Shown piece by piece: positions 16,941 to 56,257 of a DNA stretch of 64,000 bases. Both the position numbers and the translations under genes were made by a program. This DNA comes from Schmidtea polychroa (lineage: Eukaryota): positions 9,364,001 to 9,428,000 of the forward strand of contig CM097885.1 in NCBI GenBank assembly GCA_044892525.1, written 5' to 3'. Numbering within the stretch: position 1 is the stretch's first letter; every line of letters starts with the position of its first letter. The notes beneath the pieces are model-generated. The model was not told the DNA's origin. It made no database searches and saw only the letters and a program-made list of their open reading frames with translations.

Positions 16941-16986
16941 TTTTATAAATTATTTTTTACTGGTATATTAATTTTAATATATAAAA

Positions 16987-18273
16987 ATGAATAATATAAA
17001 AATTCAAGAAAAAAATAAATTAAATCTTGATTATAATAAAGAATTTACTCATGAAATCAAGAAAAATGATGTACTTAAAATCTCCTCAACTTCAGGATCT
17101 ATTGCAAACTTAAATCGTAGGGGTGATATAGTTTTTCAATCTCTTCAAACATCAAACCCTATAGATATTTGTAATGCCAAATTATATTATAAAATTGAAT
17201 TAGAAATTGAAGCAAACAAAGATATAACCCTAGAAAATAATTTCTTTCCAAATTTATTCTCCAACATGAGATTAAAACTAGGATCATCAGAAATTGAAAC
17301 TGTTTTACATCCAGGAGTATATTCTACAATGTTAAATTTTATTTTGACTGGTTGTGATTATAAAAACGAATATGGTGAATTAACAGGCTGGATTCCTGAT
17401 GTTAATAAAGGGGATTTAGATAAAGATGGTTTAGATTTAAATTATGGTTATTATAAAAGAGCTGAACTTTATAAATTTAAAAAATTTGAAGGTTATTTTG
17501 AATTAAAACATTTATTTGGATTCCTTCAAAACTATAATCGTATACTTCATAATGTTTTTATAGAATTAGTTTGTAATAGACTAGAAGGTGATAAAAGATT
17601 GTTCTATGGAGCTGCAGATACAAAAGCTAAATTAAAATTATCAACACTTGAATTGCATATACCTGAATGGACATTAAATCCACATTCTGAAATCAAACTC
17701 CTTGAAAAATTAAATTCCAACAAGTCTATAAATGTAAATTATTTAAATAGAATCTGTAGTGAATTTAGTATGACAGAGGGTTCAACATATTCTATAAAGG
17801 TAGCAAATTTAGCATACCGACCAAGATATATCTTGATTGGATTCAAAGAAGTAGATTCATCTTTCCAAAAAAATAACAATCTATTTATTCAAAAGATTGG
17901 AGATGATAATTTAAAAACAATCCAAATTCAATTAAATAATTCCTATTATCCAATAAATAGAATGGAGTTTAATATTGAAAAAAATGAAAACATATTCCCA
18001 TATTTAAATTATATTGAAACATGTCAAGACTTTAAAGTTGAACCACAATTAAGTCTAGAAGATTTCAAAAATTTATATTCTATATTTTGTATAAATGTAT
18101 CAGACCAAGATGATAGATTAGCCAAAAATAATGTTGATGTTACACTTCATGTAACAAAGGATTCTAATTTTAAAGCTAAAGTATATACATTAATATTAGA
18201 AGAAAAGAAAATAGAAATGAAATTGTATGGTGGAAAGATTTCAATAATTGAAAATGTCAGAGGTGATTCCTAG
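16987..18273 (+). CDS. Polinton major capsid protein (double jelly-roll), 428 aa
   Basis: Intact ORF; LENNFFPNLFSNMRLKLGSSEIE..HPG..STM, RPRYILIGF, IQLNNSYYP match Polinton MCP patterns; genomic context. Confidence 0.8.
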   Translation: MNNIKIQEKNKLNLDYNKEFTHEIKKNDVLKISSTSGSIANLNRRGDIVFQSLQTSNPIDICNAKLYYKIELEIEANKDITLENNFFPNLFSNMRLKLGSSEIETVLHPGVYSTMLNFILTGCDYKNEYGELTGWIPDVNKGDLDKDGLDLNYGYYKRAELYKFKKFEGYFELKHLFGFLQNYNRILHNVFIELVCNRLEGDKRLFYGAADTKAKLKLSTLELHIPEWTLNPHSEIKLLEKLNSNKSINVNYLNRICSEFSMTEGSTYSIKVANLAYRPRYILIGFKEVDSSFQKNNNLFIQKIGDDNLKTIQIQLNNSYYPINRMEFNIEKNENIFPYLNYIETCQDFKVEPQLSLEDFKNLYSIFCINVSDQDDRLAKNNVDVTLHVTKDSNFKAKVYTLILEEKKIEMKLYGGKISIIENVRGDS

Positions 18274-18301
18274 AGAGTTTCTCTAAATATCTATAAATAA
18301 A

Positions 18302-18766
18302 ATGTCTCTAAGTAAACCATATTGGAAATGTGAAACCTGCCAGTGTCAAGTTAGAAAACATCATAAAGGAAGCCATGTTAAAACTAAAAAACATTTAGCT
18401 CGATTAAATAATATTTTCAAAGAAACTCCAATGAATAATAATTTATGGTTAGAGTATAATCCTTCAACCAGATTCGCTTTTGAAAAAGAAGGAGCTGGAG
18501 GTGACCTACAATCTTCAAAAACAACATCTTCAATATTAAAACCCTTTACTACAGAAAAATATCCAGGCGAAAGACATTTATTCCGTCACAACTATACCGG
18601 ACCAGGAACACGTCTAGATATTAGATTAGATGAAAATAATAATCCCAAACAAGGAGAAGAACCAATAAATAGAATTGATCAAGCAGCTTTAAAACATGAC
18701 ATTGCATACAATTCAGAAGATCTTAGAGATAGACATGTTGCTGATGTTAATTTAATACATGATTAA
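18302..18766 (+). CDS. Zinc finger plus parvovirus-VP1-type phospholipase A2 domain protein
   Basis: CETC..HVKTKKH zinc finger; HNYTGPGT Ca-loop and NRIDQAALKHDIAY catalytic HD motif; in frame with the integrase past a single TAA. Confidence 0.85.
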   Translation: MSLSKPYWKCETCQCQVRKHHKGSHVKTKKHLARLNNIFKETPMNNNLWLEYNPSTRFAFEKEGAGGDLQSSKTTSSILKPFTTEKYPGERHLFRHNYTGPGTRLDIRLDENNNPKQGEEPINRIDQAALKHDIAYNSEDLRDRHVADVNLIHD

Positions 18767-18826
18767 AATAATATACAAAATCCATCAACCCAAGAAAAGA
18801 TTCAAAGAGCTCTAGTTAAATTAGCA

Positions 18827-19762
18827 ATGAAAGGTAAGATTTTTATAGGTGCAGGACTTCCTAGAATAGCAAAAGATGTTGCTAATAAAAAGATTATTGA
18901 ACAAGCAGACGCTGAAAGATCCCTTGAGAATATATCCAAGACTAGTTTATTAACCCCAACAGAATCAGAAATAAAATATGCTAATGAATTACACCATGAA
19001 TTTAGAAAAAATAAAAAATATTTAAAAGTTCAAGTACATGAAAAAGATCAAACATGGTCTGCTGATTTAGTCTTTATGCCCAAATCATCAAACCCTGAAA
19101 AATATAAAATAATTTTAACAGTAATAGATTTATATACAAGATTTGCTTTTGCAAGATGTTTAGAAAATAAAACAGGATATTCCATTACAGAAGCATTTGA
19201 AAATATATTTGAACAACATCAAAGAATTCCAAAATATTTATGGTGTGATAAAGGAACAGAATTTTATAACAAAGTTTTTACAAAGTTTTTAAATGAAAAT
19301 GATATTAAATTATATTCAACAGAAAACGAAGGAAAAGCAGTTGTAGTTGAAAGATTAAATAGAACATTAAAAAATAAAATGTGGAAATATTTTACTGCTA
19401 TTGGAAAACAAAAATGGAACAATGAATTGTTACAAAAGATTGTAAATGAATATAATAATGATGTACATAGTTCTATAAAATCAACACCTTTAAATGCTTC
19501 CTTGAATCCTTTGGAACTCGTGAATCCTGAAATAGTTAAAGTGGTAAATGAAAAACAAAAATTTAAAATTGGTGACCGCGTAAGAATATTTAAATATAAA
19601 AATAAATTTGAAAAAGGATTCACAGCAAAATGGACAAATGAAATTTTTATTATAAATAAAATACATCATACAATTCCAATAACATATGGTATCATCGATT
19701 TAAATAATGAAAAAATATTAGGTAGATTTTACAATAATGAACTACAGAAAACAAGTTTCTAA
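18827..19762 (+). CDS. Polinton retroviral-type (rve) integrase
   Basis: DDE triad WSADLV / WCDKGTEF / VERLNRTLK; KFKIGDRVRI...FEKGFTAKWTNEIF; no chromodomain. Confidence 0.9.
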   Translation: MKGKIFIGAGLPRIAKDVANKKIIEQADAERSLENISKTSLLTPTESEIKYANELHHEFRKNKKYLKVQVHEKDQTWSADLVFMPKSSNPEKYKIILTVIDLYTRFAFARCLENKTGYSITEAFENIFEQHQRIPKYLWCDKGTEFYNKVFTKFLNENDIKLYSTENEGKAVVVERLNRTLKNKMWKYFTAIGKQKWNNELLQKIVNEYNNDVHSSIKSTPLNASLNPLELVNPEIVKVVNEKQKFKIGDRVRIFKYKNKFEKGFTAKWTNEIFIINKIHHTIPITYGIIDLNNEKILGRFYNNELQKTSF

Positions 19763-19763
19763 A

Positions 19764-20360
19764 TCAAAACAAACTTTTCTTCATTTCAGCTTCTTCTCTA
19801 TCCAAATAAATATAATTATATTTTTCTTTCCAATGATTATCAACAAACATATCAAACATATTCTTATCAGGTTCAACATTTGAAAATAAATCATTATAAA
19901 TCATATTCTTGTCCCGTCGATCTAATTTAAAAAATATAAAACAATTAGAATTATTTCTTATAGAGTTTTTATCCAAAGCATAATAAGTTTGAGATATATA
20001 AATAACATTACAATTATTATTCCGTCCTCGTGTAAAGTAACTCTTTTGAATCTCTTGGTTTTTCATGTTGACAACATCATCAAATATAACTAAATTCTTT
20101 TTATTTCTAGGAAGTAAATCACAATGTAAAACATCTTCAGGTTTATTAGAGAATAAAACTTGAATCCCATGGTCTTCACAAATATAATCGTTGTTATTAC
20201 TAATATCTGATTCCATGATCTTTTCCTTGTACCAATCAACCATATCACAAGGTTGAAAAACTTCTTCAGGACATCTATGTTGGTTTTTAAAAATATCAAT
20301 TATTGCTTTTTTAGTTAATTTATTTTCAAATCCACATTTCAAAAGTTGTAATTCCGGTTG
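19764..20360 (-). pseudogene. 5'-truncated Polinton A32-like packaging ATPase
   Basis: KNLVIFDDV (Walker B), FTRGRNNNCNVIYISQTY, IRNNSN; Walker A missing, cut at ~20360. Confidence 0.85.
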
Positions 20361-20719
20361 ATTAATGGTTGTAGAATTAAAGAAGGTGGCATTCTTCCAT
20401 TAGCTGCTTTAATACCTGCAATCATTGCTGGTTTATCAGGTGCTGCTGGAATATCTGGAGGAATTGCAACTACAGCTCAAAAAGCTAAAGAATCTCAAAA
20501 GACAGACCTAGAAAAAGAAAAACTACAAACTGAAATCGATTCAATGAAGAAGAAGGGAGGGTCCGTTGGAAAAGGTCTTTATCTTAATCCATATGAAGGT
20601 CAAAAGTCCGAAGGTTAAAAGTCTGTTGGAAAGGGTCTTTATCTTGATCCTTATAAAGGCAGAGGTTTAAATGATTTTTTAAAAAATCAAATTTCTACAT
20701 CTGAATCTTTATCTTCAAA
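20358..20719 (+). pseudogene. Polinton Gly/Ala-rich virion core or membrane-active protein fragment
   Basis: EGGILPLAALIPAIIAGLSGAAGISGG and repeated GKGLYL(N/D)PY motifs; 5'-truncated, one internal stop, ends at the right IR. Confidence 0.6.
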
Positions 20720-22588: not shown

Positions 22589-24805
22589 CCTTCAAATGGT
22601 ATTCATTTGTACCAACGCTAACCGCGTTAAGGACAAAATTGTCTACCATATATTTTTTGTATCAAAATGTAACAAAAACAAAATTTTTTTAAGTTCATTA
22701 GTTTTTTATTTACATTCAAATATATAAAACAAAAATAAAAATTCAAAAAACTATTCAAAATTTTAACCAAAATAATATAAAATGAACTTAACATAATAAA
22801 TTTCTTTAATTTTTCAATTATTATGACAAGCAGGACAAATATATTTTACATGGTTTTTGCATACATAATTTTTACATTTATTACATTTTATTGTGGTTTT
22901 CCCCGTTCTGATAGGACAAGTAGAACACATGCCTCTTTTCGAAGCTGTAGGCTTCGAAGATCCGCCAGCATCATCTTGGTTTCTTTGAGCTCCCTGAATA
23001 ATATTTCTCGCGGCAAGTCCTCTAGGTAAATGTTGTCGGCTTAGCATTTGAGGTTTTATCAAACTATCACCTAATTTTTCCAAAAATAAACGTCTCTTAC
23101 TCAAACTATTACAATTCCAAGATAAATCAACTTCCTTGTAAAGTACGAAAGCATTGTAAGCAGATATATCTAACATATTGCAAAAAACAACGAATGGCCA
23201 TCTTCTAGATTTTCTTTTCGTAGAATAACAGGATACCATTTTATCTAAAGTATCCACTCCGCCTTTTGTGGCATTATAATATTTGATAATTTCAGGTTTA
23301 CGTTGAGGTTCATTAGTTATAACTTCATCAGACAAATGTAGAGTACTTTGCATCACTACGCATCGATATTTTTTAGGTACATAAGATACTAGTGTTGTAT
23401 CTTTTGTAAAAACAAATTTTGATGTATATTGTGGCAAAGATCTTGTATTCAAAATTTCTGGTGGGATTGTTGGTTTATTTTTTCTTAGTGTACCCACCAT
23501 TATTATAGATTTTTCCAGGAGTTTTTGGCCAAGCTGATATGATGTGAAAAAATTGTCGAGTGTTATGTTGTGACCTTTGAGACCCCTCACTAAATCTATT
23601 ACAATTCTCATACCTTGATTTGTTTCGGGAGCAGCATCCGGTTGTTTTCCTAAATATGGCTGTATTTTCCAAGCGTAGTAAGACTTGCTGCAAGCTGCAA
23701 TCCAAATATTTAATCCCATATTTCGCAGGTTTATTTTTCATATATTGGCGAAAAGGACATCGACCACGAAAACCAAGTAGTTGTTCGTCAACTGTCACAT
23801 TCTCTGATGGATTATAAAACATGGGTAACCTTTCACTCCATGCATCCCACAATTCTCGGGATTGGCATTTGTCATTCATACGTCTTTTTGACCGGGTTTC
23901 TTTTTTATCAAATCTAAGAATTTTTGAAATATTTTCAAATCTTTTCAATGGCATGGTTGCACGTAACAAAGGTCTACCCGTAGTTTCATGCCATAAGCTT
24001 TCAGTTGCTTCATTTTTTGACTTATAAACCCCCACTAAAATCAAGCATCCAAAATAGGAATAAAGTTCAGTTGCATCCAAATCCTTCCAACTATCTCCAA
24101 AAACGGTGTTTCCTTCACTGTTTGAGTTTTTCAAAATCATATTTTCAATAGCTTTCGGAAAAAATATCATGAATGCACTGTTTATATCAGTGATTCGGCT
24201 AGCTGCATACCTAGTAATTCCCGGAGTCATATTCAATATATTTTCTGCTCGATTGCGATACAAATTGGTACTAACAGGTTTTTGATGCCACAATACTGTC
24301 TTATCTTTCGATAAAAAACTATTTGGCTGTACATCGCCTAAACTTTCCTGATCAGAACTCGAATACTCGCTATCATTAAAAACATGGTCATCATCAGATG
24401 GATCACCTTCGCTACCACTAAAAACTAAATCTTGAATTTCTTCATCGGTTAAATTTTGATGTGTCATCATTTTGAAAACCCACAAAATAATAATTTAGAA
24501 CAAATAACATATGTTTGTTGCAAACATATGTCAAATCAAAAATCATATGTTTGTTGTAAACAGGTAAAAACAAATCATGTTTGAACTGGAATTTCATTAT
24601 AGACATTTTTGTCCACATTACGGTCAATGTGCATTTATTTATACCTAGAAATCTGTATAACACCATAAAATAAATTAAGCGGCAAATTATTAATTAAAAA
24701 AAAAGAATTTACATTGAAAAATTTTTCAAACTTAAGTTTGTATTCAGGCGTTATTTACATTTAAAAAATAATTTTGACAAAAATGTCCACAATACCATAT
24801 AAAGG
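22589..24805 (-). mobile_element. Near full-length piggyBac transposon
   Basis: TTAA on both sides; TIRs CCTTCAAATGGTATT / AATACCATATAAAGG. Confidence 0.92.
22814..24468 (-). pseudogene. piggyBac transposase with one frameshift (~23715)
   Basis: VDEQL..FRGRCPFRQYM.NKPAKYG, LDNFFTS, YNATKGGVDTLD, C-terminal Cys-rich domain. Confidence 0.9.
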
Positions 24806-38350: not shown

Positions 38351-38414
<64 letters not shown>

Positions 38415-38419
38415 ATTAT
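38351..38419. repeat. (ATT)n microsatellite at the LTR insertion site
   Basis: Direct inspection. Confidence 0.9.
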
Positions 38420-39456
38420 TGTTATGGATAGGCCTGGAGCCTTGTTGACAAAATAAATAAAAATTACTAAAATTAGAAATAGTATAAATAAAAATAATAA
38501 AGTATTACCAAAAATAAAAGATAGGTTTTATTAATTACTATTAATAGAATTAAGTAGTACATAGGAATATTTGATAATACTATTACTATATATAGTAATT
38601 ATAAAATTGCTATTAATAGAATAAATGATTAAAATAGAATATAAATACTGGTTCAAAACGAGAACCAGGGGACGATAAAACATTGAGACAACAATTTGGG
38701 CGATAAATTGGAAAGAATTATTTGGAAAATTATTAACTTATCATTTTAAAGAAAACGTGATTAAAGAATCACTGTGTTTGTCAAAATTAATTCAAGGAAT
38801 TTGTCGACAGTTCAAATTAAATTTAAATATTTCATCGTACCAGACGAAATTCCGATTCAAATTTCGGATCGATTTCAAATTTGAAAATTGGCTATAAATT
38901 GCCGAACAGAATAAACAAGAGTCAGTAAGAAAATCTCTAGCGAAAAATTGGAACAGATTTGTGAACGAAAAATAGAAAAGGAGCCATTAATTTAGACAAG
39001 GTAAAAGGAGTTCATTATTTGTGTTGTGTAAGGATAAATTATTATCCTTGTGAAGTGAATTAAAAAGCGAACACAAAGCACCGATAGCGGCTTTCGTGTT
39101 ACCTGGTAGCTCCAAAATCAGCCCACTTACTTTACCGTTATCTTTCCACTTTATTTAGCGATCGTTGTGCTACACAGGAGCCATCGATTTCTTGCAGGCT
39201 GTGGTAAACAGTAAGGATTAATAAATCCGTTTTCTTGTATTCTTTGCACATATATTATAAATTTCTGTTGTAAATTATTGAATACATTTTTGTAAAAAGA
39301 GAACGAGTTTGTTTTTAATTCAGTGATTTAAACTTATACACGCAACCACATTAAATATAAAGTATTTATATTTATTTTTATAATTTAGTTATTCTAATTA
39401 ACCTTTGGAGTCTTTGTGTTAAGATTTGTAGTCCCCGTTTTTTTTCGATCTTAACA
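38420..39456 (+). repeat. 5' LTR (~1037 bp)
   Basis: TGTTA/TAACA inverted ends, internal TATAAA (38894), followed by the PBS. Confidence 0.75.
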
Positions 39457-39459
39457 TTT

Positions 39460-39477
39460 TGGTGAGCTCGACGTGAT
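39460..39477 (+). promoter_or_regulatory. Primer-binding site, tRNA-Trp-like
   Basis: TGGTGAGCTCGACGTGAT, 2 mismatches to the complement of the tRNA-Trp 3' end (TGGTGACCCCGACGTGAT). Confidence 0.75.
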
Positions 39478-39539
39478 CTAACTTTCGGGGTAATAAGAAT
39501 TTTATTTATAAAAGACAAACATCTTTTCGAATCATTGAG

Positions 39540-40630
39540 TTAAGAAATAGGAGAGTAATAAATTTTAGACCAGTTAATAGAAATCAGCAAATAACGGCAG
39601 AGATAAATAATTTACAAAATTTAAACGAGAATAATTTACTAAATAATAATGTGCCAGTAGCTCAACCACCAGCGGTAGATTTTATGAGATACCCAACAAT
39701 TCCGATTAAACCATTTAATGGAAACCCACGGGAGTTTCCAGAATTTATGTCCGAATATTTTCAGTTAGCCAGAGCATTAGGATTCCCGGAAACGGTAATG
39801 ATTTTGAGATTACCTTTATATTTAAAAGGGATGATGCGGGAAATATATAACGATGTTATAATAGTCGAGCATCCAGTAGAATGGAATGTATTACGATTAG
39901 CGTTACAAAACAGAATATTACCGGGGGATGCAACTAGAGTGCTGAGACAACAGTTTTATAACAGGCGACAAAATTCGGGTGCGCATGTTGGGGAATTTTC
40001 ATATCAGATAATGATGTTGGCAGAGAGAGCATTTGGTAATAGGGCAGCCTGGAATGATGCAACTAGAGCATTAGTGAAAGATCAGTTTTAGTCAGGGTTA
40101 TCGTCAGCAATGAGAATGCACTCAGTTTTCACATAGAAGATAATTTAGAGGAATTAACTCGCAAAGCGTGTTTAATTGAAAGTAGCATTGAAAAGTCAAA
40201 TAATTTTGCAATTAGTAGCAATAAGTCAGATATTGAGGGTTTTAATTGTCATAAAAAGGGACATATATCAAAAGATTGTAAAAGTAGGAATAATTCTCCA
40301 GGAGACAAATTATGTACCAAGTGTGGGAGAAATAATCATGTAGCATCAAACTGTAGAATTTCGGACCTAAATTGTGAGAAATGCAAGCGCAAGGGACATG
40401 TAGCGTCAGTTTGTAAAGCTAGTTTTGGGGGGGAATAATTCAAATAATAGCAATAATAGAAATAGAAGCCCCGATAGGAATTTTCGTGGTAAAAATAATA
40501 ATAATAATTTTCAAAGTAGAAATAATTATTTTAATAATAATATTAAAAGGGATGAAGTAAATTCGAGGGGGGTAAAATTAAATGTCATAAGTGTGGAAAA
40601 TTTGGTCATATTATGCGTTCTTGTCCACAA
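39540..40630 (+). pseudogene. Gag (capsid plus four CCHC-type zinc knuckles)
   Basis: PFNGNPREFPEF, RRQNSGAHVGEF (MHR-like), LVKDQF; (F)NCHKKGHISKDC (first Cys lost), CTKCGRNNHVASNC, CEKCKRKGHVASVC, CHKCGKFGHIMRSC; stops/frameshifts. Confidence 0.85.
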
Positions 40631-42589
40631 AATCAGTTATCTAATAACAATGGTAGTAGTAACAATGGTAATAATCGACCAAAGCAGACAACGTTTGCAG
40701 TGAATTCAGACCATAAATTAACATATTTGCAGCAGCTTGAATTAGAAATTCAAGAAGAGAGAAACAGGTTAGCAAGACTAACAACAAATGAAACTGATAG
40801 GTACGATGAAAATGAAGCTGTTTATATGACATCAGCCAGAAAAAGGCGAAATAAAAATAATTATGTAGAACTTGAAGTAATGATGCTTCAAGAGAGTCCA
40901 CGAGAGGACAAAAAGGAAAAGACTATGGTCATAGAACCAGAGGTCTGTGAGGGTTTAGAGGTTTCACCCAGGAAAAATCTAATGGCTATGGCCATGGAGC
41001 CAGAAGCCAACAGAGAAATAGAAGGTTTACCGGTTTCACCAGTTAAAAATCGTAAGGCTATGGACATGGATCCAATAGCTAATGTAATTGTTCCAACAGA
41101 AGTTTTGGAAAAAAGATGGGCTTCGGTCAGTGAGCCGGAAGTTCTTATAGCCACATCATCCATGCGAGGTGAGTGTGGTAGTGAACTAATAAAGGTTAGA
41201 GAAGCATCGAAAGAGGAAAGAAATCCCATCGATGACTGTAGAAAAGTATTATTACGCAAGAGTGTACGGCAAAGAGAAATGAGACAGAAATTAGAAAATA
41301 TTCGTTTAAACCCCGTTAATGAGAATGAGGTTGACAAAGTAATGGAAATCATATCAGAGTTAGATAGAAATGAGGAATATCATCCAGAATTGAGAGAAAT
41401 TCTGAGAAATATTGGCCTAAATTGGAAACAAAGAGAGAATCTGGAAGATTCTACAATTTTTGTATCTTTCCCAAAGGGTTGTTTTCGTAGATATACAATT
41501 AACCCAAGTGAAAAGGTAGAAGCATTGGCAAAGAGAGTTTCTGTGGTAAAACCTCAATTGAGATGCAAACTATATTTATTGGGAGAAAGATTATTAGAAG
41601 GAGAAACCCTGTTATATTGTGGTATACTACCAGGGAAAAATATGGTTATAAAAGCAAAGTTTCACAAGGAAACTGTTACAGTAGTGGACTTGGATAATGT
41701 CCTTACAATAAGCGAGATAGAAATTGATCAATTAAATCAAATATCAGCCGTACCACATAGATTGGGAATCGAGCTGATGAAAAACCCAAGAGATGGGGAA
41801 GCCATTAAGATGATAATGGATTGAATACTGGAGTTGTGAATCCCAGTAGATACTCTTAGAGAGATAATGCCATTGGTGGTGTCTTTAGTAAAAGAGACAT
41901 CACAATTCCAGACACAAGCAAAGATGCTGTTGATTAAAAATGGACATGCTATCAGACATTTGGAAGGTAGACAAGGTCCAGTGATGTTAGATATCAGGAT
42001 ACCCAGGAGAGGACACCTGATACAACAATTCTCATGTTATCATAGAGTAAAGAAACTGAGAAAAAGAATATCAGAAATAGTAAAAGAATCATTCCTAATA
42101 ATGATACATTGTTGTCAGGTGGATGACGACGAATTTCTAGTAGATGTTGGATGTTTTCCCAATGAGGAAACGGTTATATTAATATTACTGGTAGAGTTTC
42201 CAGAGGATCAATGGGCAACATTGAGATTGCCGGATAATGCTGAAATGGAGGATGAAACTGTACATCCCGAGCAAAAATAAGCAGATGGGGATATTCATCA
42301 AGAACCCGTAACTACAGTGGATTTAGATGAAGAGATAGATAAGTATCTCAAGGAACTTGATAACACTGAAGACGAGTTGGTCGAAATATTTCCAACAGAG
42401 GAAGACAATGAGGTACAATTAAATCGAAATGAAACAAACATCGGAGCTAGTACTTCGCGACAAGTCGAGTCACCAAGAGTGAGCCCGAAGTTAGTCGAGA
42501 ATAAAAAGAGAAAGGAGAGAAGGGGTAGACCGAGGAAAAGTCAAATGAACCCACCTCCAAGAGAACTTCTAAAACCAGTTACTGATTGA
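40613..42589 (+). pseudogene. Gag-extension polyprotein with two ubiquitin-like domains and an AT-hook
   Basis: Three same-frame ORFs separated only by stops; TIFVSFPKG..YTINPSEKVEAL...LYLLGERLLEGETLLYCGI (Ubl ~41453-41662); weaker second Ubl ~41981-42193; RRGRPRK. Confidence 0.6.
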
Positions 42590-42599
42590 TATCATCGAA

Positions 42600-43442
42600 G
42601 TGAATTTCGGAACATGGATAACTGAGCACAAGTTTTGGGATATCAAAGAAGCGAAAGGAAAATATGAGTTAAATGAGGAGTTGTTGACAGAAAATATTTC
42701 AAGTAGTCCAAGGGGAACAGGTGGATTTACTAGCTGGATGATGATGTTGTTAGTAATGATGGGAATATTGCGACAGACAAATTCCCTAACGGCATATGAT
42801 TGTAATAAACCAATACTATCGCGAATCTACTCATTAGTAGACACAGTGGAATGCAAGGAAGCATATCCAAATAAAGTTGCAAAAAGGGAAGACGTGGAAT
42901 ATCATGTTTATCAACAAACAGAGTTTTACAGAACCAGAGTGAGGGAATGTCGAATACAGAGAGCGACGTTTGAATATTATTGTGGATCAAGTAGTTATTC
43001 GGCATTTTTAGGAGCTAAACTCATTCCTATACCGTTAATCATCCCACCAGAGGATTGTATAAATGCTTTTTGGTCAAAAACAGTTAAAATAGATCATGAG
43101 GTAACAATTACCGCAGAAGAAGGGAAAAAGTTGGGTATAACTATTACCCAGGGAGGACCGATAGCAGATGATGGTTCTTGTCATGGTAGAAAGAAAGTAA
43201 GAGGTTCTAATGTAGTAAGCTATGTGGTAACAGTTGAGGACTACACAGTAGAGCTGATCGAGTACGAAGGAACTTTCGAAGTATCCACGGGAAAAATGAT
43301 GTCGCATCCAGAATGCACCGTGAAATATGGTTATTGTAAAACCAGTTTGGCAGTATTAACGTACCAATCAATGAGAGATTTTTGTGATTTGGGATACCTG
43401 AAAAAGGTAGTATTTTCAAGGCTAGATGGGAATCAGTGCTGA
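42600..43442 (+). pseudogene. Envelope glycoprotein N-terminal half, chuvirus-G-like (3'-truncated)
   Basis: Hydrophobic signal WMMMLLVMMGILRQTNS, then LTAYDC..YSLVDTVEC..VRECRIQR..YYCG..DC..DDGSCHG cysteine pattern. Confidence 0.7.
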
Positions 43443-43775
43443 AGACCATTCTGAGTTTGAATGTTTTACTATATTGTTTTTCAACAGTTCGTTAAATATA
43501 TTTTTTGTGATTTCTATTTTTTTGGGATCCAATGGTCTTACTTTTGAGTGGACTGGGTTTCCGTTTGTCAGTATTGCGTGTTCAGTAATGTGGTTTGAAT
43601 TTCCATCGAAAGTTACTGGTTCGCAGAGTTTATCGTATTTTGCCAGTAGTGTGACTATTTCTGGTACGTGTTCAATAGTTTTGATTGTTTTGATAGTTGG
43701 TGTACTTGTTTGAATAACGCCGATGTCTACTTTCGACAAGTTTGATGTTGTGTTTCTGGCTGTTTCTTTGTCTAT

Positions 43776-44165
43776 TTAGTTGTTTTCGACTATTTTCTTG
43801 TTTCGGCAGTCCACTATTAGGTTGTAATTTGCTAGAAAGTCAGCCCCGATTATTGACTGTTGTACTTCTGCAATTGTGAATGGCCAATTGTATTTTTTTG
43901 AATTTATTGTGAGTGTTATTGTATGTTGACCAAATGTTTTAATTTTGGAGCCATTGGCAGCGGTTAGTGATTTTTCTGTAGTTTTTGCATTTTTGTATAA
44001 GTAGTGTGGTAATAGGGAGATCACGGAACCTGTGTCGATTAGAAAGTCTGTATTGTTTGAATGCACCGTGAAAGTATTATTATTGTCACCAAATGTGGGT
44101 GCTATCAATGGTGACATTTTTAGTTTTCCTGCTCTGTTTTGTGGAATTCGCAGGGTTTTATGCAT
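43776..44165 (-). CDS. Retroviral aspartic protease
   Basis: FLIDTGSVISL, LTAANGSKI, IIGADFL. Confidence 0.85.
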   Translation of the reverse strand: MHKTLRIPQNRAGKLKMSPLIAPTFGDNNNTFTVHSNNTDFLIDTGSVISLLPHYLYKNAKTTEKSLTAANGSKIKTFGQHTITLTINSKKYNWPFTIAEVQQSIIGADFLANYNLIVDCRNKKIVENN

Positions 44166-45298
44166 TTATATGCTTTGTCGCCGAATTGGTTATGAAAGTA
44201 GCAGTGGTTTTTGTTTAGGAAATCTTTTCTTGAATCCCTTTCTGGGCTACTGTTTCGGTAATTGTTGTATCGGTTTGGTGAGTTTGACCGGTTTCTGCAG
44301 TGTCCGTTTGGGGATTGTCTGTGGCTGTAGTTCTGTCTGTTGTTTCCTTTGGGTGGTCGGTCATAGTTTTGTCTGTTATGATTGTATGATAGTTGGTCTG
44401 TGTTGAAATTGTTTCTGTTGAATAGGTCTCTGTTTTCGTTTGGATTGAAGTTTTGCCTGTTGTATTTCTCTTTTATTTCGGCTAGTTCTGCTTCTATTTT
44501 TCTGTTTTCGACAATTATTTCGTCGAATTTGCTGATCAAGGTGTTTATTAATCGATTGGTTGTTTCATTTGGTTCGGAGTTTTTGTTGATTGGTTGGTTG
44601 TTGTGATTAGTTTTATTTCTGTTGTAGTTTTGGGTAATACAGGTTGTGGGGTAGATTTCTTCGTTTATTTTATCCGCAATGTCAGCGAGTGTTTCGACGT
44701 CAGCGTTACTGTTAGCGGCTAGGATTCGTCTAATTTCCGCTGGCATAGCACGCATGAAGAATTCTTTCACCAATTTGTTGGAACCGGAGTTTGTTATGTT
44801 TGGTTGTAGATACTCCAGTTTTTGTTTCGATTGTCGTAGGAAATCTGTGGGCTTGTTGTCCCCTAACTGTGTATTGTTGAGGCATGACTCTAGCATTTGC
44901 CTTCTGTTGACCTTGTTTTTGTTGGTCAATATGTTACACAGTTTGGTAAAAGGGTCGTCGTCTTTTGATATTTCATCGATTTGATCGGCGATTTCGTTTA
45001 ATTTGTTGCTTGGTAGTGCTGCTATTATGTTGGAGCATAGGGATTTTGTTGACTTAACTCCCGATAGCGTTAGGATTAGTTTCGCGAATTCTAACCATTT
45101 TTGCGGTGTTCCGTTGTCATCTGTGAAATAGTTGGGGATATTTGTTTTTGGGTTGATTATTGAATTAATGGTATGTGTGTTTTCTGGGTTGGTGTTTGGG
45201 TTGTAGTAGTAATTTGTGCTTTCAGGTGTTTGAGTATTATCGTAGTTGTTTGGTATTTGTGGAATATTTGTTGGATTTGTTTGATTTGAAGCCATCAA
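44120..45298 (-). CDS. Gypsy Gag, 392 aa, intact ORF
   Basis: LGDNKPTDFL, FMRAMPAEIRRIL, LADIADKI, CYFHNQFGDKAYKC.KPC. Confidence 0.85.
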   Translation of the reverse strand: MMASNQTNPTNIPQIPNNYDNTQTPESTNYYYNPNTNPENTHTINSIINPKTNIPNYFTDDNGTPQKWLEFAKLILTLSGVKSTKSLCSNIIAALPSNKLNEIADQIDEISKDDDPFTKLCNILTNKNKVNRRQMLESCLNNTQLGDNKPTDFLRQSKQKLEYLQPNITNSGSNKLVKEFFMRAMPAEIRRILAANSNADVETLADIADKINEEIYPTTCITQNYNRNKTNHNNQPINKNSEPNETTNRLINTLISKFDEIIVENRKIEAELAEIKEKYNRQNFNPNENRDLFNRNNFNTDQLSYNHNRQNYDRPPKGNNRQNYSHRQSPNGHCRNRSNSPNRYNNYRNSSPERDSRKDFLNKNHCYFHNQFGDKAYKCIKPCEFHKTEQEN

Positions 45299-45714
45299 TT
45301 GTTTTGTTGCTGTTTTTTTATTGTTTGTTGTGCAAAAAAAATAGTGGTTTGTTTGAAGGATATGGCCTACTGTGTTCGGCCAACAGTGTCACTAGCCTTT
45401 ATAGTTCTATAATAACTATACTGAAAGGTTTCGTGATTGAAAGAAGACGTCGAATGCGAGTGTCGTGTTGTGTTTGCTTTGCTTCTGACACCAATTGTTA
45501 AGTGGTAGGTTTAATAAAATAATTGATGGAGTAGTATGTTTGGTAAGAAAATTGATGGGCCCGAAAGAGTCTCCGTTAAAACATGTGGCGGGACAATCAG
45601 GGTGCAGGCTGTGTTATGTGATTCAACAAAAAATAATAAAAACAAAATTAATATTTAACAATATTCAATTATTATAATAGCAAAATAAAAATAATCGTAC
45701 TTGGGTCAGCTAGT

Positions 45715-55282: not shown

Positions 55283-56257
55283 ATGACTCATCATTCAAAG
55301 TTTCAAGATTTAAGTCATTTTTACAACAAAAGAAAAAATTCTAAAAATTCCCAAAAATATTTAAAACAACTTTTTCAAAAATTAAAACAAAAGAAAATTA
55401 ATTTTATCTTTTTCAAGCCTAAACCATATCCAATAAAAGAATTGGAAAACAATTACACAATTTTGGAAATGTTATTTTCCACCAAAGGTTCTTCGATATA
55501 TTTAGCTAAGCACAAACATTTCGGTTGTTTAAATGTAATGAAAACATATAAAAATAATGAATGTTTGAAAAATGAATTGAAAATTCTTAGTGAAATCGGT
55601 TTTCATGAACACATTATTCAACTAATTGAGTATAACAGATCGGATTCCTTTGGAAGGTCTTTGATGTATGAATATGCCAATGGGGGGGACTTGTGCACTG
55701 AAATGACAAATTTTGGAAAATTTGACACTAACAAGGCAGGCCGAGTTACTTTGCAAATTTTAAGTGCTGTTGAATTTTTGCACTCGAAGTCAATAATTCA
55801 CAGAGATATTAAATTAGAAAATATTGTTTGTTTTAAAAATCTTGAAACTTTGTTAAAAGTCAAATTGATAGATTTCGGGCTCTCAATTTTTTATAACAAG
55901 AAAAATCCTAAAACCAGCTCTGCAGGCACGAGGGGTTATATGGCTCCTGAAACCCTTTTAAATTACCCACAAAACTTTACTGTTGATATATGGGCTTGTG
56001 GAGTTGTCATGTATGCTATTTACACCGGATATCATCCATTCTACTCAAGTAAATTCTCTACAAACGAAATCACAAACATCACTCTTAACAACGATCTTGA
56101 TGAGAAGTACCTTCAAAACATCGACGTTGAAATTGCAATCCTCATAAAAGTTATGTTGCACAAAGATCCTATAGAAAGGCCGTTTGCAAAGGAAATTGTT
56201 CAAATCTTTAGAAAGTATTGCGTTTCTAATAATATTATTAATTGTTATGGCATTTAA
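55283..56257 (+). CDS. Serine/threonine protein kinase (CAMK-like), single ORF
   Basis: VMK, HEHIIQL, EYANGGDL, IHRDIKLEN, KLIDFG, GTRGYMAPE, DIWACGV, ERP. Confidence 0.9.
   Translation: MTHHSKFQDLSHFYNKRKNSKNSQKYLKQLFQKLKQKKINFIFFKPKPYPIKELENNYTILEMLFSTKGSSIYLAKHKHFGCLNVMKTYKNNECLKNELKILSEIGFHEHIIQLIEYNRSDSFGRSLMYEYANGGDLCTEMTNFGKFDTNKAGRVTLQILSAVEFLHSKSIIHRDIKLENIVCFKNLETLLKVKLIDFGLSIFYNKKNPKTSSAGTRGYMAPETLLNYPQNFTVDIWACGVVMYAIYTGYHPFYSSKFSTNEITNITLNNDLDEKYLQNIDVEIAILIKVMLHKDPIERPFAKEIVQIFRKYCVSNNIINCYGI

Follow-up and report, generated by a model that had tools for sequence, protein, structure and literature searches.

Planarian long terminal repeat (LTR) retrotransposons of the gypsy type include the giant elements Burro and GYPSM1, treated by Arkhipova & Yushenova 2019, who cite Jurka 2007 and Grohme 2018 (PMC6431247). 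Burro is a single open reading frame (ORF) encoding gag, ubiquitin-like, BCL2-like, env, protease (PR) and dUTPase-like parts, and has been termed the first case of an in-frame env between gag and pol; an anti-apoptotic role is cited for the IAP of Burro1 (PMC13465017). Errantiviruses of GAG-ENV-POL order with a gB-type env occur in Nematoda, Bryozoa and Platyhelminthes, six of them in Schmidtea mediterranea (Chary & Hayashi 2026, PMC13524379), and section 14 of that paper cites Dezordi et al. 2020 for BEL/Pao elements with a chuvirus-type glycoprotein. Bdelloid rotifer LTR elements carry a DEDDy exonuclease as ORF3 (Rodriguez et al. 2017, PMC5408684). Passages of PMC8532177, PMC11410931 and PMC13238120 hold nothing further on this architecture. 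Here we analyze a stretch of 64,000 nucleotides from Schmidtea polychroa (GCA_044892525.1, contig CM097885.1, positions 9,364,001 to 9,428,000, forward strand; the window), in which an LTR element with gag and a viral glycoprotein, and no pol between them, begins at position 38420. An initial annotation had proposed either a retrovirus-like lineage with env upstream of pol, possibly in one polyprotein, or a pol-less satellite, in a probably non-arthropod host; the host is indeed a planarian. Our analysis makes it very probable that the element in the window is dead and truncated and belongs to a young family of Ty3/gypsy elements within the planarian Burro/errantivirus clade. Unbroken members of this family encode gag, env and pol, in that order, in a single 3,516-codon frame; the product is likely one membrane-threaded polyprotein, from which the components of an enveloped particle would be released by cleavage.

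Results

Coding organization of the family

A search of the host genome yielded 186 candidates, of which 40 were scored (92–100% identity). Thirty of the 39 scored copies other than the window copy were taken further, and 29 were used for domain order (c23 was left out); ORFs were listed for the first 20. Seven of these 20 hold a single natural frame of 3,516 codons together with an ORF2 of 775 codons. The Pfam matches in one unbroken copy run CCHC, ubiquitin (weak), PF24664, aspartyl protease, RVT_1, RNase H, H2C2 and rve, and the full in-frame order is gag, ubiquitin-like, Bcl-2-like, chuvirus-type fusion glycoprotein, PR, reverse transcriptase (RT), RNase H (RH) and integrase (IN). Pol lies between gag and env, the arrangement named in the initial annotation as fatal to its proposal, in 0 of 29 copies, and env precedes pol wherever both are present; a "NOT colinear" flag raised for c10 in the domain-order count was due to a tandem neighbor. 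The idea of env upstream of pol in one polyprotein is supported. Searches with PF24664, PF00452 and PF00653 led to four further families in the genome, and all five keep env in frame with its neighbors. One of the four is Burro1-like, with MATH-like, Bcl-2-like, env, pol, ankyrin-like and BIR parts (its MATH and ankyrin labels were assigned by eye, and "Burro1-like" refers to domain content compared with PMC6431247).

The Cys-rich ectodomain, for which a viral origin had been suggested, is homologous to the fusion glycoproteins of chuviruses and other Monjiviricetes (PF24664, E 1.4e-19 for the window piece and 1e-81 for an unbroken copy). Searched against PDB sequences, the window piece gave no match, and a homologue search among proteins near env length returned a single match, P0004, which is a sister env piece fused to an ion-channel fragment and probably a gene-model artefact. 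For the Bcl-2-like domain, a four-family profile matched BOK (E 1.6e-4) and Bcl-xL; this family alone reached only E 0.03–0.05, and family f3 matches PF00452 at E 3e-6. The hydrophobic stretch that opens env lies within about 25–50 residues behind this domain in the four aligned families. A coronavirus spike match to the Bcl-2 region was rejected, being short and helical and raised artificially by repeats in the construct. Short Bcl-2-like ORFs (150–180 residues, often with one internal TAG) also occur in many copies at many genomic places outside the clade.

We estimated the ratio of nonsynonymous to synonymous change (dN/dS) across 29 copies, including the window copy and leaving out c06, whose flank is identical to that of c05. 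For variants common to at least two copies, the ratio is 0.07 in env, 0.17 in the Bcl-2-like domain, 0.04 in RT, 0.20 in an ectodomain behind the integrase and 0.02 in the exonuclease-like ORF2; from the env anchor to PR the sequence is under purifying selection (0.10). All regions lie at 0.00–0.25 bar one linker (0.59), and private variants give 0.27–1.05. The low values of shared variants indicate that selection preserved ORF2, env and both the Bcl-2-like and the post-integrase domain as the family multiplied; against this it must be weighed that shared variants are not independent events and that a transition/transversion ratio of 4 was assumed.

A predicted second membrane protein behind the integrase

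Four of the five related families carry, behind the integrase, a hydrophobic signal-like stretch, an ectodomain of 230–400 residues and a hydrophobic anchor. The ectodomain is predicted to be all-beta and possibly Fn3-like, Fn3 being a lead only. A profile of the tail alignment, run against 1.84 billion proteins, returned four matches: a true-looking relative (P0007), one fn3-repeat protein and two unrelated repeat proteins. Herpes- and paramyxoviruses use a fusion-plus-attachment protein pair, and the predicted second membrane protein would most likely partner the fusogen, either in attachment or as a receptor decoy.

Several observations weigh against this picture. The anchor is missing in family f2, in its one examined and broken copy; the tails of the other families show no BLASTP similarity to that of this family; and the Burro1-like tail is Cys-rich and at most a candidate homologue. 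The Fn3 calls from Atlas (0.89 and 0.92) came with low recognition values, the PDB profile placed Fn3 at E 0.19 or worse, and models of the domain are of low confidence (predicted local distance difference test, pLDDT, 38 alone and 43 with a four-row alignment); a fold search with the pLDDT 43 model gave no match at E ≤ 0.001. The topology of the polyprotein is itself predicted from hydropathy and alignment only, and the placing of a second hydrophobic stretch behind the env anchor is unsure.

It is also quite possible, if somewhat short of probable, that the post-integrase protein acts in the producing cell, as a receptor decoy, a superinfection block or an anchor holding Pol at the budding membrane, and is not an attachment factor of the virion. 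Between families its divergence is much more rapid than that of env (env is 35–42% identical, whereas the tails give no BLASTP match), its size and cysteine content vary, and the clade carries other host-control cargo, namely the Bcl-2-like domain and, in the Burro1-like element, BIR and MATH/TRAF-like parts. Fast divergence would, however, suit receptor-binding proteins equally, and the protein is co-translated with Env and kept in four of the five families.

Proposed expression as one membrane-threaded polyprotein

In the mechanism that we propose, everything ahead of Env, namely Gag, the ubiquitin-like units and the Bcl-2-like domain, would be cytosolic, and an internal signal behind the Bcl-2-like domain would send Env into the endoplasmic reticulum (ER). 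The cleaved signal stub would stay behind as the tail anchor of the Bcl-2-like domain, as Bcl-2 proteins normally have. The Env anchor would stop transfer, leaving PR-RT-RH-IN in the cytosol again, and a second signal behind the integrase would export the last ectodomain, which has an anchor of its own. The parts would then be freed at about 1:1:1 by signal peptidase together with the protease of the element, with neither a gag-pol frameshift nor a spliced env mRNA; similar hydrophobic motifs are found at several domain borders of the polyprotein. The likely purpose would be to form enveloped particles, while the Bcl-2-like domain would prevent the death of the cell that produces them. It weighs against this scheme that particles, fusion and cleavage enter it as proposed steps only.

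One DNA frame need not mean one protein, and splicing or internal starts could yield separate Gag-Pol and Env in unequal amounts. Retroviruses and Drosophila gypsy splice env, and a 1:1 ratio of Gag to Pol is unusual for particle assembly; ORF2, which overlaps the end of ORF1 in a different frame, also needs an expression route of its own. We nevertheless consider separate products unlikely, since the frame is open across all joints in the seven unbroken copies, the stretch from the env anchor to PR is under purifying selection and env is in frame with its neighbors in every family. RNA contigs from four runs, one source of which is possibly DNA, held no usable splice joint and favor neither view.

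The window copy and its decay

The copy in the window lies on the forward strand and was inserted into a (TAA/TTA)n microsatellite (38355–38419). Its 5' LTR (38420–39456; TG...CA, 1,037 bp) matches both LTRs of complete copies, where it recurs as a pair, and the primer-binding site (PBS) at 39460–39477 matches tRNA-Trp with one mismatch. The capsid-like region of gag (39678–40204, mapped from an unbroken copy) is broken by a stop (40089) and a frameshift (40117); a Retrotrans_gag match (E 2e-9) was obtained in a sister family whose gag is 36% identical to that of this family. The nucleocapsid (40238–40624) holds four CCHC zinc knuckles at about 40238, 40313, 40373 and 40583, with frameshifts at 40433 and 40566. 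A weak ubiquitin-like domain 1 follows at 41456–41665 (PF00240 E 0.033; E 2e-4 in a sister family), and a probable ubiquitin-like domain 2 at 41981–42193 has 33–40% identity to the corresponding region of two sister families, with no Pfam match of its own and no significant similarity to domain 1; stops at 41822, 41837 and 42278 surround it. Only a remnant of the Bcl-2-like domain is left (42581–42650), its bulk having been removed by a 367-bp deletion at 42582 that is absent from the first 20 other copies. The predicted internal env signal (42717–42788) is a hydrophobic stretch aligned ahead of the ectodomain start in four families, three of which exceed the hydropathy cut-off, this family falling below it. 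The N-terminal ~40% of the gB-like fusion glycoprotein occupies 42789–43432.

Similarity to other copies stops at 43432, within a few bases of the cut that had been placed at about 43435, and there is no 3' LTR. The copy adjoins, tail to tail, an unrelated inverted gypsy fragment (43426–45500, reverse strand; gag, protease and RT start) that marks the truncation and is itself cut at its RT start. With two cut elements joined tail to tail, the truncation looks like a rearrangement between them. In all, four in-frame stops, three small frameshifting indels and the 367-bp deletion keep the copy from being one ORF. D[ST]G[AS] and Y[IVM]DD motifs are absent from all forward frames of 39481–43440, and the ~700 codons between the knuckles and the PF24664-matching stretch accordingly hold no protease or RT motif. 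The LTR, Trp-type PBS, four knuckles, motif-free codons and cut of the initial annotation were therefore recovered.

Its pol-less gag-env satellite was not: although the window copy lacks pol and three of the 29 others have no pol domain, such an element is highly improbable, and refuted for the window copy, since a pol domain has been retained behind env in 26 of the 29 (and RT in 23), the three exceptions end in env or just after it, the ends of shortened copies differ and the window copy runs without a 3' LTR into another element.

Classification and relatives

The pol order PR-RT-RH-IN is of the Ty3/gypsy type, with a Ty3-type RNase H and an H2C2 integrase matched, and the best solved relative of the RT is Ty3 (E 5e-51). 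The five gag-env-pol families form one RT-RH clade (support 99/97) apart from five other gypsy RTs taken from the flanks, in a tree of 15 rows that covers elements of this genome, holds no named references or BEL RT, and has long branches flagged. The link to BEL/Pao elements with a captured chuvirus glycoprotein (Anakin-like), which the initial annotation had raised, has in its favor that PF24664 is common to both; it is nonetheless scarcely credible, as the RT is nearest to Ty3 among solved relatives and groups with the Burro1-like element, and no Pao family was matched.

The element has the broad Burro layout, one polyprotein with ubiquitin-like (weak) and BCL2-like parts ahead of an in-frame env, and is about half the size of Burro (15.3 kb vs over 30 kb; 3,516 vs 4,873 residues) with no MATH, BIR or ankyrin match. 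We therefore regard it as a compact addition to the Burro-related, gag-env-pol Ty3/gypsy elements of planarians, and not as a giant Burro in the strict sense. The Burro1-like element of this genome (L107-L108, G000:C1:10.237-10.259 Mb) belongs to the same RT clade and likewise ends in signal, ectodomain and anchor. Its ectodomain consists of three Cys-containing beta repeats, and the polyprotein is followed by TRAF-like, BIR-RING and coiled-coil ORFs.

ORF2

ORF2 of three families has an ISG20L2-like exonuclease fold (profile E 8e-12). Its acidic and His motifs are altered in this family and seemingly complete in one sister family, whose exonuclease ORF at L084:4232-5689 (reverse strand) has DEDDh motifs that look intact. 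The product is likely an RNA-binding, catalytically dead exonuclease fold. In family f3 (L086-L088) ORF2 extends into the 3' LTR, and the PBS is unlike the Trp type of f0, f1 and f2.

Copies, LTRs and insertion sites

The family is a young, autonomous LTR element. The exact pattern of LTR end and PBS occurs 77 times in the genome (control 0), that is, at least 77 junctions. Seventeen copies have both LTRs, which are 99.6–100% identical within pairs, and elements measure 14.7–15.4 kb (~15.3 kb) apart from one internally deleted copy of 11.1 kb. A 4-bp target duplication flanks 16 of the 17, the remaining one lying in a tandem array; nine of the 16 lie outside microsatellites, where a duplication is non-trivial. 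The family fits the Ty3/gypsy pattern of paired LTRs with PBS, purine-rich tract and target duplication. The host tRNA whose 3' end is complementary to the PBS is called tRNA-Trp(CCA) by ARAGORN, and most other copies match it in full. Genes for this primer tRNA stand in a tandem array of 284-bp period from G000:C4:55.02 Mb onward (L062-L070; the pattern has 830 matches genome-wide). Three head-to-tail element copies that share LTRs, with a period of 14,218 bp, lie at G000:C2:100.88-100.91 Mb.

Among 24 insertions with a readable end (c06 and the tandem c10 left out), 11 lie in (TAA)n tracts, compared with 1–2% of random positions in the fetched DNA (binomial p about 1e-12; 7e-6 at an assumed background of 10%), the copies being top-scoring matches and not a random draw. 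Three sister-family copies were inspected, and none lies in such a tract.

Other features of the window

A forward-strand run of ORFs of 431, 159, 331 and 211 residues (16978–20399) resembles by eye a Polinton/Maverick capsid, integrase and ATPase block. Two overlapping ORFs on the reverse strand (22814–24494) look by eye like a frameshifted piggyBac-like transposase, and an intronless protein-kinase-like ORF of 324 residues lies at 55283–56257 on the forward strand.

Discussion

The order env before pol, which the initial annotation had implied to be novel, is already published for this clade (PMC6431247, PMC13524379) and is not new. Like our family, Smed_errantivirus_4 combines a Ty3/gypsy pol and an HSV/gB-type env in gag-env-pol order, and the Schmidtea mediterranea errantiviruses are listed at about 14.5–18 kb, a similar span (PMC13524379). 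Its env is identical at 164 of 252 residues (about 65%, counted by eye), which makes ours a distinct family. In the published table neither an LTR nor a PBS is entered for any of the six Schmidtea mediterranea elements, whereas this family has clear LTRs, a tRNA-Trp PBS and 4-bp duplications; the words Bcl, fibronectin and Burro do not occur in the main text of that paper. Burro is likewise a single polyprotein, with CCHC-knuckle gag, ubiquitin-like, BCL2-like, mononegavirus-like env, PR, dUTPase-like, RT, RH and IN parts (PMC6431247); our family differs in its four knuckles and in the exonuclease-like ORF2, which was not found in the Burro1-like loci. The bdelloid rotifer elements likewise carry, downstream, an additional ORF for an exonuclease of the DEDD superfamily (PMC5408684), but that of our family is ISG20/REXO-like, belongs to an env-bearing element and has lost catalytic motifs yet is still under strong selection. 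The BEL/Pao elements with the same glycoprotein family differ in superfamily and host group.

Four features still make the family of interest: its predicted second membrane protein, the junction of Bcl-2 and env, the preference for (TAA)n and an exonuclease that is probably dead. Our literature search found no description of a post-integrase membrane protein, a Bcl-2/env-signal junction, a degenerate exonuclease ORF2 or a (TAA)n bias, though Grohme 2018, Lee 2026, Repbase, figures or bioRxiv supplements may hold one. A bolder reading, which we offer tentatively and consider rather doubtful as a whole, would make these elements endogenous retrovirus-like agents that enter by means of two glycoproteins, both made from a single polyprotein with four passages through the ER membrane, namely a class III fusogen ahead of Pol and, behind the integrase, a captured attachment protein of the Fn3 type, the env signal stub serving as the anchor of a viral Bcl-2 and integration being steered into (TAA)n, none of it reported before.

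The family is compact, very young and rich in unbroken copies, and so shows the minimal Burro plan. Its (TAA)n bias would be a simple safe-harbor strategy in an AT-rich genome. If the second membrane protein is real, this would be an LTR retroelement with a fusion-plus-attachment pair made by flavivirus-style membrane threading, which would bear on whether invertebrate errantiviruses move from cell to cell in animals whose soma and germ line are both supplied by stem cells.

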